64,000 nt of DNA from Candidatus Multivoradales bacterium (GTDB lineage: Bacteria > Acidobacteriota > Thermoanaerobaculia > Multivoradales > J023), in assembly GCA_965248925.1 (NCBI GenBank), contig CBDFLE010000006.1, positions 1,376,001 through 1,440,000 on the forward strand, read 5' to 3'. Made by a program: the position numbers and the translations under genes. Below the pieces are notes generated by a model that saw only the letters and a list, made by a program, of their open reading frames with translations, did not search any database and was not told the DNA's origin. Shown piece by piece: positions 59,117 to 64,000 of this stretch (positions within the stretch are counted from its first letter, which is position 1; every line of letters starts with the position of its first letter).

Positions 59117-59869
59117 TCAGCGCGGCGGGTCGGTAGTGACGACAATCCTGTTGTTGGCGTCGCGAGTGATGAAAACCTGCCGCCCGGCGGGTCTCTGGCG
59201 ACGCACCTCGCGCTCTTGCTCCCGCGCTCTGCGCCAAGATTTGTAACGCGCCTCGGCCCGCAGGTCCGCCGATGCCGGCTGGCCGCGATAGAGGCTCAGG
59301 ACCTTGTTGATGTACTGGTGAGTCTCAGGAAACGGCGGGATTCCCGAGTATTGCTCCACCCGATGGGGCCCAGCGTTGTAGGCCGCCAGCGCCAGCTCGA
59401 GACTACCGAAGCGATCGAGCAGGCGACGCAGATAAAGAGTGCCTCCGCGCAGATTCTGATCCACATCATAGGCACTGCTCACCCCAAGTTCGGCGGCGGT
59501 CGGCGGCATCAACTGCATCAATCCCATCGCCCCCTTGACCGAGCGTGCTCGCGGATTGTAGCCCGACTCGACTTGCACCAGCGCCTGCACCAAGCGGGGA
59601 CTAAGGCTCTGGCGCCTGGCGTGGTACTCGATCCGTCGCTGGATCTCAGCGTCCGGCACCGCCACTAGTCGCGCCGACGCCCGGCGCGCGAGCTGCTTAG
59701 GGCTCTCGTTGTAGATCAAGGACTTGCCGTTCGGCAGCTTCTTGACTTTAATCTCGGCAGCGGCTTGCCCAACCCACCCCAACATCACACAGCAAACGGC
59801 CAACAAGCCACCGGCCAGAGGGAGAGGTCGTCTGAGATTTTGATATCGCATCGTTCGAGTCGCTGCCAT
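59117..59869 (-). CDS. Lytic transglycosylase (SLT domain), exported
   Basis: VQVESGYNPRARSVKGAMGLMQLMP, ALAAYNAGP, PPFPETHQY; signal peptide. Confidence 0.92.
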   Translation of the reverse strand: MAATRTMRYQNLRRPLPLAGGLLAVCCVMLGWVGQAAAEIKVKKLPNGKSLIYNESPKQLARRASARLVAVPDAEIQRRIEYHARRQSLSPRLVQALVQVESGYNPRARSVKGAMGLMQLMPPTAAELGVSSAYDVDQNLRGGTLYLRRLLDRFGSLELALAAYNAGPHRVEQYSGIPPFPETHQYINKVLSLYRGQPASADLRAEARYKSWRRAREQEREVRRQRPAGRQVFITRDANNRIVVTTDPPR

Positions 59870-59999: not shown

Positions 60000-60157
60000 T
60001 CAGCCTGCTTCTAGCTGCTCGCCAACCACCCGCGGCACCGCCAACAGTAGCTCGGGCAACTGCTCCGGCTGCTTGCCGCCGGCCTGGGCGAAATCGGCTC
60101 GGCCGCCCCCCCGGCCGCCGACCACAGCCGCCAACTCGGCAACCATCTTGCCGGCGT
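60000..60157 (-). pseudogene. Displaced duplicate of the alaS 3' end (~52 codons)
   Basis: Encodes AGKMVAELAAVVGGRGGGRADFAQAGGKQPEQLPELLLAVPRVVGEQLEAG*; 60028-60157 matches 62920-63049 at 129/130 nt. Confidence 0.9.
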
Positions 60158-63049
60158 AGACGTCTAGACCGAGGGCAAAGACGGCCCTTCGCTGTATGGG
60201 CCGAGAAATCGCTCGCCATCGAAGTGAACCAGATGCTCTGGAGCGTCTGCCACCCAGACTTCCGTTTCCCAAGCTATTTTCGGCAAATACTCCCGCATCG
60301 CGACCCGGTCGAGGAAGGCCGTCACAAAGACCAGACCAGCTGTGGCACCTTCGAATAGGTCCTTGAGTTGAAGGTGCCGCACAAGATTCACTGGGCCATG
60401 AGAGGTGACGGCCTCAATGAGGACAAGCCAATTGCGATCAACGTGATGAATCACCACATCCGGCATCTTGCCATGAGGGTCAATCTCCACCCTTAGGCCT
60501 CGCAGATAGTCGACCTCGTAGAGCAAGTGCTTCTTGCCAGCATCGCCAACGTAGACGACTTTGCCGCCAGGGGTGAACCACGGCGCAAACTGCTCGACGA
60601 TCTCCTTCACCAGCAGGTTCTGGCCACCCGAAGTGAGTTCTAGCGTCCGACCCCCAGGAAGGGACACTGGGATGCGATTCATCTCGCGATCTCTCTGCCG
60701 TAGACGGTTCTTCTCGGCTACCGAGTCGAGATAGGGGGCTAGCTTAGTAGCCCACGCTTCCGTTGCAAAAGAGCGGAAGAATTCAAGCGCCACCGGTTCG
60801 ATCTGGTAGACAGTCTTGGGACTGTTCGTCGGCCGCTCAGGATCGTCCGGATTGAGCAGAACCAGGCCCATCTCGATGAACTGGTGCAGCGTGTAGCGGC
60901 GAATCGTCTCCCGCGTGTTGGGTGCGTACTTCTTGCCGTAATTAGAGGCCATCCAGTCCATGATCTCGGTAACACCGCGCAGCGGTGCCTCAACCGAGAC
61001 CCATTGAGCCCCTGGAACGAGATCGAGTAACCCCAGAAGAGTAAGTGCTGACCGTTCGTTACATTGATCCCTCGGCGCCTCCAGCGCCTTCAGAATGTCC
61101 TCAGCAGCCCGCACCCGTCGTTTCGCCCTAACGGGGTCGTTTCCTCCACTCATCACCGAAACCTCACTCCTCACAAGTCGGTTGATCTCACCTTGGGTCA
61201 ACTTCGACTGCCCCATAGGGCGGCCCAATCGTTCGAGCTCTTCGACATCCGGAAAGCGAAGTGAGCGCAAATCGCTGGCATTGACCTGGGTGTGGCCGCT
61301 GAACTGCCGGAAGTAGGCATCCACCGCGGTGCTGTTCAAGAAGACTGCAATTCCCTTGGCGAGAAGTTCGGGAAGCCCCGCCTGCTTGCGGTGGAGCACG
61401 TTCAACTTGTTGTCGAAGGCGACCTGCTCGGCGTCAACGCGAGAAGGGTCGTACAGCGCGGCGACAACGCGGCGCCTCTCCTCCTTGGCACTGAATCGGT
61501 TGACGAGAACGTACCAGCCCGCTGGAAGAAGCAATTCATCGTCAGGGCCAGTTACGGCCAGAGCATTCGGCTTTGAGTCAGAATTCAGTGGCCAAGCGGC
61601 GAATCCTGTAGCGAGATGCCGAGGGAAAATCAGCGGTGCATCTCCCTCCTGGGGCATGTTGTGCAAGCGTTCCTTGGCACGAAAGCCAACCACACGACCC
61701 GTCGACACCGAAATACCCAACTCGGCAAGCGACCTCGGTAGACACCGCATCTTTTCTGCAATGCATGCATCCAACTCATCAGGAACTACGTGGAAAACGC
61801 AATCTGGGTCGTCGGGCAGGATCAGTTCAGTCGACTCGATAGAGCGCTCGACCGGGCCCTCATCCATGGGCCCGAGCGAGGTGGTGATCTTGACCTCGCC
61901 ACGAGGACCGCCCCGAATTCCATGGAAGATGACGTTCTCTTGCAGAACTTCGTCGCCGGCGAAAGCAACATCGCGGGCTTCATAGACATGAACCCGGCGG
62001 AACGCCAGTTGATGGGATAGCGCTTGGCGAAAACGGCGGAAATAGGGCCCATTCATGAAACTCCGTGGGGTGATGGCCACCAACTCGCCGCCCTCCTCGA
62101 GAAGCTCGAGAGCGAGCCAAACAAACGCCGAGTAGAGGTTGCTAGTCTCAAGTCCAGCGGCACTCAGGCGCGCCCGCTCTACACTGTCGCTTCTAAGCTT
62201 GCGGTATGGCGGATTCAGGATCGCGACGTGAAAGGAACAGCGCTCCTGCGGCGCGAAGAGGTTGCCGCCCATGATTTGCTGGGTAGCACCGAGAATGAAG
62301 TTTTCCTGATGAAGCTCAGCGGTGAACCCAACGCCTGCGGCGCGACAAACGGCATCACAATGCTCGAAAGTTCGGGCCAAATCTCCAGCCAGCAGCTCAT
62401 CGATTTCCCAGACAGTAGTGTGTATGGCTGAGGGTCTATCACTCTTGGGTCTGGCGCAAATCTCGGCGATCGCCGCGGCCGTGAGAATACCGTTCCCCCC
62501 TCCAGCATCGAGAATGCGAAGCTCGCTGGGCGGCTCGGGCAGCCGTAGCATTGCAGCCATGAAGCGGGCCACGCTCTCTGGGGTGAAGAACTGGCCGAGA
62601 TCTGAACGTCGCTTTGGGTCGGCAGCCAGACGATTGGAGATATCTAGCCGCTCAAGATCAAGCCGTTCGGGAAGGTTGGCCGCGGTGACAACCCCAAGGA
62701 CGCCCCTGTTGTGTAGTTTTGCACTAAGAAGAGTCATTTTCGGCCGCCATCTCCGAATCGCACTCAGTGTCTGGTCAAGCTCAACCCGGGTGGATTCGCC
62801 GCGGTAAGTCTATCCGAAGAACGATCGGCAGCGCCCGTCGCAACCAGTTCCCCCTTGTGGGCTTGATTCCGGCCAGTCCAGCCCGCATAAGTCAACTGTC
62901 CGCAAGCTGCCGGCTGAGAACCCGCGGCACCGCCGACAGTAGCTCGGGCAACTGCTCCGGCTGCTTGCCGCCGGCCTGGGCGAAATCGGCTCGGCCGCCC
63001 CCCCGGCCGCCGACCACAGCCGCCAACTCGGCAACCATCTTGCCGGCGT
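60028..63049. mobile_element. Integrase-less insert at the alaS 3' end bounded by 130-bp direct repeats; cargo is one R-M gene
   Basis: Direct repeats 60028-60157 and 62920-63049 with one mismatch (a60043/g62935); single ORF between them; no recombinase. Confidence 0.8.
60164..62737 (-). CDS. Fused N6-adenine DNA methyltransferase (gamma class) and BsuBI/PstI-family restriction endonuclease
   Basis: LGQFFTP, ILDAGGGNGIL, ILNPPY, FSGHTQVNASDL in the MTase half; YAPNTRETIRRYTLHQF, PTNSPK, HGKMPDVV, LIEAVTSHGP, IAWETEVW in the REase half. Confidence 0.92.
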   Translation of the reverse strand: MTLLSAKLHNRGVLGVVTAANLPERLDLERLDISNRLAADPKRRSDLGQFFTPESVARFMAAMLRLPEPPSELRILDAGGGNGILTAAAIAEICARPKSDRPSAIHTTVWEIDELLAGDLARTFEHCDAVCRAAGVGFTAELHQENFILGATQQIMGGNLFAPQERCSFHVAILNPPYRKLRSDSVERARLSAAGLETSNLYSAFVWLALELLEEGGELVAITPRSFMNGPYFRRFRQALSHQLAFRRVHVYEARDVAFAGDEVLQENVIFHGIRGGPRGEVKITTSLGPMDEGPVERSIESTELILPDDPDCVFHVVPDELDACIAEKMRCLPRSLAELGISVSTGRVVGFRAKERLHNMPQEGDAPLIFPRHLATGFAAWPLNSDSKPNALAVTGPDDELLLPAGWYVLVNRFSAKEERRRVVAALYDPSRVDAEQVAFDNKLNVLHRKQAGLPELLAKGIAVFLNSTAVDAYFRQFSGHTQVNASDLRSLRFPDVEELERLGRPMGQSKLTQGEINRLVRSEVSVMSGGNDPVRAKRRVRAAEDILKALEAPRDQCNERSALTLLGLLDLVPGAQWVSVEAPLRGVTEIMDWMASNYGKKYAPNTRETIRRYTLHQFIEMGLVLLNPDDPERPTNSPKTVYQIEPVALEFFRSFATEAWATKLAPYLDSVAEKNRLRQRDREMNRIPVSLPGGRTLELTSGGQNLLVKEIVEQFAPWFTPGGKVVYVGDAGKKHLLYEVDYLRGLRVEIDPHGKMPDVVIHHVDRNWLVLIEAVTSHGPVNLVRHLQLKDLFEGATAGLVFVTAFLDRVAMREYLPKIAWETEVWVADAPEHLVHFDGERFLGPYSEGPSLPSV

Positions 63050-64000
63050 GCACCCGGCCGATCAAGTCTTTGGACACGGTCACCACTACGCCGACCTTGC
63101 CTTCGCCGCGGCTGGCCAACACGACGACTCCGGAGCCCAACTTGTCGCGCATTGAATCGGCCAGGCCGCGGAGTTCTTTGACCGCCGCCCCCGGCACTTC
63201 CCGCGCCACCACCTGGATTCCCTCGACGTCGCTCTGTCCAGCGCTGGAGCTGCCGCCAGAGAGCATCTTGCGCCGCAGCCCGGTGACTTCTGCTTCGAGG
63301 TCCTTGACTTTCTTCTTTAACGCCGCGGCCTCCTGCGGAGCACGCTCGGCCGAAGTCGAAAGGCTGGCCTCGACCTCGCCCAGCAGTGCCTCGCGGCGGC
63401 GTAGCAAAGTCATCGCGCCCTCGCCTGTGACCGCCTCGATGCGCCGTACTCCAGAGGCGACACCGCGTTCGCCGGTGAGCAGCAATAGGCCGATCTCGCC
63501 GCTGTTGCGCACATGACAGCCACCACACAGCTCAAGGCTGAAGCCCGGCACTTCGACCGTGCGCACTCGATCGCCGTACTTCTCGCCAAATAGAGCCATC
63601 GCTCCAGCCTCGCGGGCTTCATCGTAGCCGCGCTCGGTGATCTGGGTGGGGGTGGCGCGGCGAATCTGCTGATTGACCCGGTTTTCGATGCGCCGCAACT
63701 CGTCGGCAGTCACCGGCCGGGGATGGGTGAAATCGAATCGCAGCCGCTCAGCGGCCACCAACGAGCCGGCCTGCCGCGCCGCGCCGCCGAGCACCTCGTG
63801 CAACGCTCCGTGCAGCAGGTGGGTAGCGGTGTGATTGCGCTCGATCGCCAAGCGACGATCGCCATCGACCCGCAAGTCGACAGCCCGCCCGGCGGCCAGC
63901 TGGCCGCGCTCGACTTCGAGGAAGTGGAAGAAGCTGCCGGCGGGATCTTTCTGCGTGTCGATAACCCGCGCCAGGCCACCAGGCCAGGACAGCTCGCCGC
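62892..64000 (-). CDS. alaS: Alanine--tRNA ligase, C-terminal part (5'-truncated by the window)
   Basis: RNHTATHLLH, QAGSLV, LRFDF, AMALFGEKYG, ELCGGCH, GVRRIEA, GGRGGGR..AQAGG; frame is open to the window end. Confidence 0.97.
   Translation of the reverse strand, partial: GELSWPGGLARVIDTQKDPAGSFFHFLEVERGQLAAGRAVDLRVDGDRRLAIERNHTATHLLHGALHEVLGGAARQAGSLVAAERLRFDFTHPRPVTADELRRIENRVNQQIRRATPTQITERGYDEAREAGAMALFGEKYGDRVRTVEVPGFSLELCGGCHVRNSGEIGLLLLTGERGVASGVRRIEAVTGEGAMTLLRRREALLGEVEASLSTSAERAPQEAAALKKKVKDLEAEVTGLRRKMLSGGSSSAGQSDVEGIQVVAREVPGAAVKELRGLADSMRDKLGSGVVVLASRGEGKVGVVVTVSKDLIGRVHAGKMVAELAAVVGGRGGGRADFAQAGGKQPEQLPELLSAVPRVLSRQLADS

Follow-up and report, generated by a model that had tools for sequence, protein, structure and literature searches.

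A fused restriction-modification gene, probably inserted in the 3′ end of alaS with a long target duplication, in a Candidatus Multivoradales genome

We analyzed a 64,000-nt stretch (here called the window) of the metagenome-assembled genome of a Candidatus Multivoradales bacterium (GenBank assembly GCA_965248925.1; here G000; 7.98 Mb in 6 contigs), taken from positions 1,376,001 to 1,440,000 of contig CBDFLE010000006.1 (5.2 Mb). Within this window, a single restriction-modification (R-M) gene lies between two copies of the 3′ part of alaS, the gene for alanyl-tRNA synthetase (AlaRS). On balance, and with confidence only a little above even, we read the locus as a foreign, fused PstI/BsuBI-type R-M gene that was inserted in the last 160 bases of alaS with a 130-base target duplication and without an element-encoded recombinase, i.e., as a case of R-M insertion with long target duplication. 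The intact alaS gene most likely ends in codons derived from the insert, while the native end of the gene persists as an orphan fragment on the far side of the R-M gene. Read along the minus strand, the order is alaS, a 154-nt spacer, an 857-amino-acid open reading frame (ORF), 6 nt, the orphan alaS 3′ piece, 130 nt, slt, and then pgsA; the genes neighboring the insert are alaS, slt, pgsA, and pyk. The features are as follows (positions are those of the window).

62892..64000, minus strand: 3′ part of alaS, extending past the window (Pfam tRNA_SAD and DHHA1)
62920..63049, minus strand: repeat copy R, within the intact alaS, codons for ...AGKMVAELAAVVGGRGGGRADFAQAGGKQPEQLPELLSAVPRV (129/130 identical to 60028-60157)
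62892..62919, minus strand: tail of the intact alaS (last base of a Val codon, LSRQLADS, TGA), probably insert derived (contiguous with the lower-GC insert; tail score, 10.7 bits with a position-specific scoring matrix [PSSM])
62738..62891, minus strand: spacer of 154 nt from the alaS stop to the R-M start (GC, 0.61)
60164..62737, minus strand: fused type II R-M gene, 857 amino acids (Pfam PF07669, PF02384, PF17728, and PF06616)
60158..60163, minus strand: 6 nt separating the R-M stop codon from the orphan repeat, the putative right (illegitimate) joint
60028..60157, minus strand: repeat copy R′, an orphan alaS 3′ fragment without upstream alaS sequence
60000..60027, minus strand: orphan tail (VGEQLEAG, TGA), probably the native alaS end (PSSM score, 13.0 bits; 130 nt before slt)
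59117..59869, minus strand: gene for an slt-type lytic transglycosylase, the native downstream neighbor of alaS (Pfam SLT)

An earlier reading of this DNA, made from the sequence only, had reported 130-bp direct repeats of the alaS coding sequence that flank a single R-M gene, and our analysis confirmed this. Two tools independently placed the repeat at positions 60028 to 60157 and 62920 to 63049, with 129 of the 130 nucleotides identical; the sole mismatch is a T at position 60043 versus a C at position 62935. Only these two copies were found by a search of the whole 7.98-Mb genome. The upstream edge of the repeat is sharp (5 of the 20 adjoining nucleotides match beyond it), and the insert between the copies comprises 2,762 nt (60158 to 62919). 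The intact alaS (an open frame of 893 amino acids; called protein P0121, 885 amino acids, with PF01411, PF07973, and PF02272) terminates in ...AVPRVLSRQLADS* with its stop codon at 62892 to 62894, and the orphan piece terminates in ...AVPRVVGEQLEAG* with its stop codon at 60000 to 60002. The alaS genes of relatives are 71 to 90% identical to the repeat, over parts of it only. Because the two copies are alike at 129 of 130 positions, the next 24 nt differ at 12, and the relatives reach only 71 to 90%, it cannot be the shared ancestry of two diverged alaS genes, and the repeat was made, or made uniform, within this lineage. The two-copy genome search and the 71 to 90% identity in relatives rule out a repeat that arose by chance or merely reflects conserved sequence.

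Beyond the repeat, the two copies run into tails that differ over 8 codons only. The sequence-only reading had described these tails as diverging completely, which overstated the difference: 2 of the 8 residues and 12 of the 24 nucleotides are identical, and the preceding RV belongs to the repeat. Its statement that both copies run the same number of codons to a TGA was correct, as both frames stop at the same codon. We scored the tails with a PSSM built from the tails of 186 distinct AlaRS homologs anchored at the DFAQAGG motif. The intact tail scored 10.7 bits and the orphan tail 13.0 bits (median of real tails, 11.5), while none of 4,362 control 8-mers from the six frames of the insert reached either score. 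Both tails are also of the usual length after DFAQAGG, and the orphan type (VP.VVGEQL..G) is common among the nearest AlaRS. Judged by these scores, both 8-codon tails are genuine AlaRS C termini from different lineages. Since both score as AlaRS ends, the insert brought an alaS end of its own, as the sequence-only reading had proposed. Because the first 8 codons of the insert score as an AlaRS tail, a simple target duplication without any relation between the insert end and alaS is ruled out.

As to which tail replaced which, parsimony most likely makes the tail of the intact gene the insert-derived one and the orphan the native one. The suggestion that the synthetase now carries an element-derived C terminus is therefore favored by parsimony and by a second alaS gene in which the same direction can be read. 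In this second case (G305:C30:303000-303700 [L057:3533-4195], from another Acidobacteriota genome), the intact alaS is 46 to 47% identical to its counterparts in four congeners over its final ~116 codons, while an orphan alaS 3′ piece that starts ~80 nt after the stop is 86 to 94% identical to the congeners. DNA homology to the congeners ends at L057:3533 and resumes at ~3960; i.e., ~94 native bases are replaced by 431 foreign bases, in which the GC content dips to 0.57, and there is no cargo gene. What makes this case informative is the availability of congeners. Comparison with them shows that a foreign alaS end displaced the native end, which was kept as an orphan, in the direction proposed for G000.

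The insert is foreign to its surroundings. Its GC content was 0.58 overall and 0.55 to 0.60 along its length, compared with 0.63 to 0.70 in the flanks, and the GC content at third codon positions (GC3) was 0.646 in the R-M gene versus 0.70 to 0.79 in five neighboring genes. In 29 loci of relatives (same family and order), an slt homolog was present within 1.5 kb downstream of alaS in 14 and pgsA was present downstream of alaS in 16, whereas an R-M homolog was found downstream of alaS in none. The order alaS-slt-pgsA is otherwise conserved in relatives, including distant ones with slt directly after alaS, and the 130 nt from the orphan stop to slt resembles the alaS-slt spacing in relatives. 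The spacer and the native intergenic region showed no similarity beyond chance to the regions downstream of alaS in relatives.

The 857-amino-acid protein combines an Eco57I-type N6-adenine methylase with a BsuBI/PstI helix-turn-helix domain and endonuclease in one chain, so that both the R and M functions are inside the insert in one ORF. It matched the PADLOC profile for the fused form (PDLC03359) over positions 15 to 839 of 840 (E value, 4.8e-233). The NPPY motif of the methylase lies at residues 175 to 178; in an alignment with five homologs, N175, P176, P177, and Y178 were invariant, as were many further columns, and the gene is intact. A protein search retained 7,123 of 8,000 candidates at an E value of ≤0.001, and the same three domains occurred in 119 of the best 120 homologs listed. 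Given this shared architecture and the full-length PADLOC match, the enzyme is an ordinary member of a large fused family. The closest homolog among the matches listed (P0002; 88% identity) is encoded on a 5,033-nt contig, and the gene is present in a single copy in G000. The likeness to fused, single-chain BsuBI/PstI systems thus extends to a full-length profile match (PF06616/PF17728 with PF07669; PDLC03359). In the classical PstI and BsuBI systems, M and R are separate genes, unlike the single-chain enzyme of G000.

The site of PstI and BsuBI, CTGCAG, had an observed/expected ratio of 0.60 in the genome (rank 7 of 64 palindromic hexamers), i.e., it was mildly depleted and not an outlier, and it was absent from the insert, in which ~1 site was expected. 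Avoidance of this site is thus not distinctive enough to indicate a long residence of the gene or its specificity. We predict that the R-M enzyme is active. A putative promoter of the R-M gene presumably lies within the 154-nt spacer, although a scan of this spacer for sigma-70-like sites found none (0.6 expected by chance). The most depleted palindromic hexamer in G000 was CACGTG (142 seen versus 562 expected; ratio, 0.25), and GAGCTC, GTGCAC, and AAGCTT had ratios of ~0.46 to 0.49; such depletion may reflect other R-M systems in this genome.

We then considered the claim that alaS serves as the landing site of a dedicated cassette, which the surveys did not bear out. In 11 loci carrying related R-M genes (44 to 72% identity; two of these look like one contig filed twice), neither alaS nor slt was found in flanks of up to 6 kb, and nothing in these flanks resembled the 154-nt spacer. 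The related genes occur in assemblies of Vicinamibacterales, Bryobacterales, Tepidisphaeraceae, and Gemmatimonadota, and at the three annotated loci they stand beside other defense genes, transposases, or integrases. In one Bryobacterales locus (L038:2151-9086), the related R-M gene is reduced to a frameshifted remnant (residues 748 to 845). A ~1-kb repeat bounded by 26-nt terminal inverted repeats is present there in three copies, one of which immediately precedes the remnant.

The last 100 AlaRS residues were also compared with 301 Acidobacteriota genomes, of which 288 had a match (a tally that includes G063, G088, and G189, flagged as unpublished, with one match each and used for no other result). 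Besides G000, two AlaRS C-terminal matches were present in 36 genomes, all of which we inspected. In 34 of the 36, the second match was weak and lay either at a distance or on a different contig (AlaX-like ORFs of ~400 amino acids). The candidate duplication in G136 was rejected, as it proved to be a 141-nt overlap of two contig ends. Only G305 had a second alaS 3′ piece adjoining alaS. The genome search for duplicated alaS 3′ ends that the sequence-only reading had suggested thus returned, among the 300 other Acidobacteriota genomes, G305 alone and without cargo; cargo between alaS 3′ repeats was found in 0 of these 300. Two further fragments were noted. An alaS-like fragment (G011:C15:124893-125150; query residues 51 to 136, 51% identical, with an internal TGA) lies 9.7 kb downstream of alaS in G011. 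In G214, the best AlaRS C-terminal match (G214:C22:90191-90430) is in an open frame of only 130 amino acids with an internal TGA, which may represent either a broken alaS end or a fault in the assembly.

A repeat search of G000 for isolated direct repeats of 50 to 400 nt that are 0.5 to 40 kb apart yielded 22 pairs. We inspected 11 regions, i.e., 10 of the 22 pairs and one pair from an earlier repeat listing. One of these regions is a second islet (G000:C5:1343108-1347219 [L044:2001-6112]) bounded by a perfect 60-nt direct repeat with sharp edges, which takes in the final 56 nt of an FtsX/MacB permease gene together with its stop codon. This islet (4.05 kb; GC, 0.53) encodes a type II methylase, an unknown 343-amino-acid ORF, and a PD-Lambda-5_A-like ORF, and no recombinase ORF was found in it. 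Because two different genes and two different repeats are involved, both around defense genes, a general insertion process fits better than an addressed element.

Four other explanations were weighed against the insertion described above, two of which concern the direction and the reality of the arrangement. The direction could be reversed, with the intact alaS, including ...RVLSRQLADS*, wholly native and the foreign DNA made up of the spacer, the R-M gene, and a donor alaS 3′ fragment, the first 130 nt of which was subsequently replaced through gene conversion from the native copy. In two of the closest AlaRS, the tail is indeed closer to the intact type than to the orphan (P0122, 4 of 8 residues; P0128, 5 of 8), and GC3 is lower in the orphan tail. 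This scenario, however, requires two events, and the conversion tract would have to begin precisely where the fragment begins. The orphan tail is matched at 5 to 7 of 8 residues by six of the 13 nearest AlaRS, so that relatives do not decide the matter; G305, where congeners allow the test, has the native end as the orphan; and the orphan stop precedes slt by 130 nt, a spacing like that in relatives. We regard a reversed direction as highly improbable. Still less probable, in our judgment, is an assembly artifact, i.e., an uninterrupted alaS-slt chromosome into which a 2.9-kb unit, present as a separate circle or in another strain, was threaded via the shared 114 to 130 nt. The reads were available as Logan k-mer contigs from four runs (X1 to X4) of one sample, which is probably the source of the assembly, and these contigs break at the repeat, ending exactly 30 nt past the mismatch and past the repeat edges, which is compatible with both arrangements. 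Independent unitigs from three of the four runs (X2 to X4) contain all four junctions; in run X1, no contig was found over the R-M gene, an absence that carries no weight because only ~69% of the run was covered and some records were filtered out. The depth of the R-M unitig was about that of the flanks in the three runs (13 versus 16; 25.5 versus 19.5 and 25.7; and 22 versus 15 and 28), and that of the shared 114-nt unitig was about twice that of its neighbors (26.8, 47.7, and 41.8 in X2 to X4). These depths fit one integrated copy per chromosome and leave the order of the pieces unproven. A circle without a replication gene, maintained at one copy per chromosome, is unlikely, and the contiguity of the assembly (6 contigs, this one of 5.2 Mb) suggests reads much longer than 130 nt.

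The two remaining explanations invoke a mobile element. Integrative elements such as e14 and phage 21 at icd in Escherichia coli restore the 3′ end of their target gene, and the locus could accordingly be a decayed site-specific element, i.e., an integrase-encoding island at the alaS 3′ end that carried a replacement end and was reduced by deletions to the R-M gene between attL and attR, or one moved in trans by an integrase elsewhere. Elements of this kind leave direct repeats, and the elements known as CIMEs are described as integrase-less, defined by the loss of integration and transfer genes while attL and attR are both kept (PMC5704250). The resemblance to G000 lies in repeats derived from the end of a protein gene, a replacement end in the insert, and a housekeeping gene with an element-derived C terminus, a likeness of form only; known elements need a site-specific recombinase and a short core. 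Action in trans is conceivable, as the genome does have 37 matches to Phage_integrase and 4 to resolvase. The absence of an integrase or transposase between the repeats, as stated in the sequence-only reading, held up: the R-M gene is the only Pfam family match among the ORFs there, the nearest Phage_integrase match is 87 kb from the locus, and none of the four resolvase matches is on this part of the contig. We found neither a cognate recombinase in cis nor a related element with the same att site, and no third copy of the repeat (e.g., an attP on another element) exists in the genome. No remains of other genes are present, as the insert consists of one intact ORF with 154 nt before it and 6 nt after it; 130 nt of identity is long for a core site; and the second islet has a different repeat, also without an integrase. 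In the excerpts that it returned, a literature search on alaS as an integration site of genomic islands yielded no integration into alaS. A decayed element is thus unlikely, and we give a similarly low probability to a mobile, integrase-free cassette, i.e., a 2.9-kb circle (repeat, foreign tail, spacer, and R-M gene) addressed by its alaS fragment, moving in and out by RecA-dependent single crossover and kept by postsegregational killing. The product does have the topology of a single crossover, and the insert brings an alaS end with it; the whole unit is tightly packed, with a spacer of 154 nt and just 6 nt past the stop; a near-perfect direct repeat of 130 nt suffices for RecA-dependent exchange; and the identity of the repeats would follow if the circle arose by excision in the same species. 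Recurrence, by contrast, was not seen among the 11 related R-M loci (44 to 72% identity), none of which had alaS or slt nearby or flanks that share anything with the spacer, nor as cargo between alaS 3′ copies in the 300 other Acidobacteriota genomes. The second islet, with its different gene and repeat, fits a general process better than an address. The junction of a circle has the same k-mers as the integrated form; indeed, the circle and the empty site share all of their 31-mers with it. Killing after loss is also, to our knowledge, not established for single-chain R-M enzymes. Should the unit work as a recombinase-free defense cassette in the full sense, with the alaS piece as its address, a circle formed via host RecA, the gene always repaired with the cassette's own tail, and retention through R-M toxicity on loss, which we think slightly less likely again, the islet at the FtsX-type gene would be another "homology-addressed" cassette, and the long-unexplained R-M insertions with "long target duplication" would be footprints of such cassettes. 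We find no support for a dedicated, self-stabilizing, alaS-seeking cassette.

We therefore return to an insertion of the R-M gene with target duplication. The incoming DNA would have consisted of the foreign tail, the spacer, and the R-M gene, starting with the alaS end of another organism. As it began with an alaS end, its left end would have joined at the homologous alaS position and in frame, leaving the synthetase to end in 8 insert-derived codons. Its right end, 6 nt past the R-M stop, would have joined without homology at a point 130 bases upstream of the left joint, so that the stretch between the joints was copied and the native alaS end was left orphaned before slt. Two routes could lead to this result, namely, homology-facilitated illegitimate recombination of a linear fragment across sister chromosomes and a single crossover of a circularized fragment. 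The sequence-only reading had proposed integration by a single crossover. Because the insert carries a genuine alaS tail, the product has the corresponding (Campbell-type) topology, i.e., target 5′ part, repeat, insert DNA, repeat, and target 3′ part, and the repeat anatomy agrees with it; a linear fragment across sister chromosomes gives the same product.

Several points weigh against this account. Insertion, direction, and target duplication are all read from one genome, without an empty site for comparison, since the nearest AlaRS are only 66 to 69% identical and no congener is at hand: none of the 40 relatives searched was of the same genus, and no AlaRS of >69% identity was found among 5.8 billion proteins (searches of the full-length range and of 202 to 644 amino acids). 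The genome is assembled from a metagenome, and k-mer contigs of one sample cannot order four junctions. Both tail types occur among the 13 nearest AlaRS, and tail similarity thus gives no direction. The lower GC3 of the orphan tail (4 of 8 codons versus 6 of 8) is opposite to the expectation for a native end, with a tiny sample of 8 codons. The right joint is only 6 nt after the R-M stop, a tightness expected of a defined cassette and not of a random joint. Finally, homology-facilitated illegitimate recombination as described usually deletes recipient DNA and does not duplicate it, and a duplication would require two sister copies or a circular intermediate. Interchromatid integration of transforming DNA has been shown in pneumococcus (PMC3784515).

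The comparison with R-M insertions in Helicobacter pylori that the sequence-only reading had drawn points to the right class, and this class is known well beyond H. pylori (PMC2853133). Furuta, Abe, and Kobayashi (2010; PMC2853133) describe R-M genes of types I to IV inserted with repeats of >30 bp and without mobile-element genes, the repeats often spanning a start or stop codon so that the target gene is kept intact; Nobusato et al. (2000), as cited there, also reported such insertions. The G000 locus agrees with the class as described in that survey: R and M are inside the insert, which is 2,762 nt long (<20 kb); the repeat is 130 nt long (>30 bp); neither the insert nor its immediate surroundings contain mobility genes; the host gene, with the repeat at its end, remains complete; and the composition is unlike that of the host. 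It differs from the described cases, in which the repeat usually runs across the stop codon and a sister genome with an empty site defines the insertion. In G000, the repeat falls 8 codons short of the stop, and the homologous tail and stop codon come from the insert. What is new here relative to the described class is the in-frame, homology-guided left joint with an insert-supplied alaS end.

The locus also resembles the products of homology-facilitated illegitimate recombination (de Vries and Wackernagel 2002; Prudhomme et al. 2002; and Meier and Wackernagel 2003, as cited in PMC5361080 and PMC3784515). One end is anchored by homology, with an in-frame, foreign-type alaS tail at the left joint, and the other is joined without homology 6 nt after the R-M stop, with 2 nt shared at the joint and 5 of 20 nt alike beyond it. 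As summarized in those papers, the process is known from the laboratory, in naturally transformable bacteria, and usually with a deletion, whereas 130 nt was duplicated in G000. A further parallel is the displacement of C termini at Rhs, contact-dependent inhibition (CDI), and type VI secretion system (T6SS) effector loci (Kirchberger et al. 2017 [PMC5361080], citing Jackson et al. 2009), where displaced or orphaned 3′ ends are found: the 3′ end of the gene gives way to an incoming piece whose upstream part is conserved, and the old end is orphaned downstream. Those loci are described as polymorphic toxin genes under diversifying selection, in which the new end changes function. In G000, by contrast, a housekeeping synthetase is affected, the change is confined to 8 variable residues, and the cargo is a defense gene.

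R-M insertions with long target duplications and without mobility genes have been known from genome comparisons since 2000, and no mechanism is apparent from the account of them in the 2010 survey. The G000 locus retains a trace that is absent from the usual cases, i.e., a foreign, homologous end of the target gene that is joined in frame. This preserved joint hints at the mechanism, in which one end would have been anchored by homology and the other joined illegitimately. Together, G000 and G305 offer a concrete model that is testable in a transformable bacterium. The host itself is little affected: AlaRS has exchanged eight variable residues at its C terminus, and a defense gene was gained that could be deleted again via the direct repeats.

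Other repeats and recombinases in G000 provided several minor observations. At G000:C6:5004195-5006788 (L052:1996-4589), a perfect 121-nt direct repeat with sharp edges flanks 2.35 kb that contain a Mutator-family transposase split into two ORFs; target duplications of such elements are usually far shorter than this repeat. At G000:C6:4118297-4119705 (L045:1998-3406), a 111-nt direct repeat surrounds ~1.2 kb (GC, ~0.52) with no ORF of ≥100 amino acids. A 372-amino-acid tyrosine recombinase occurs in at least 14 near-identical copies, in tandem units that are 7.5 to 12 kb apart (G000:C5:923200-976003, C6:3497866-3511691, and C6:1342671-1350400 [L053]), and a 128-nt repeat around one recombinase unit of L053 encodes a YD/Rhs-type repeat sequence; the overall picture resembles arrays of Rhs-like genes that include a unit bearing the recombinase. 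In contig G000:C1 (29,517 nt), which carries two Phage_integrase matches, the initial 10.8 kb reappear at a distance of ~18.74 kb, as several runs of exact 31-mers that are slightly shifted, and the contig may be a circular element of ~18.7 kb that was assembled past its end.

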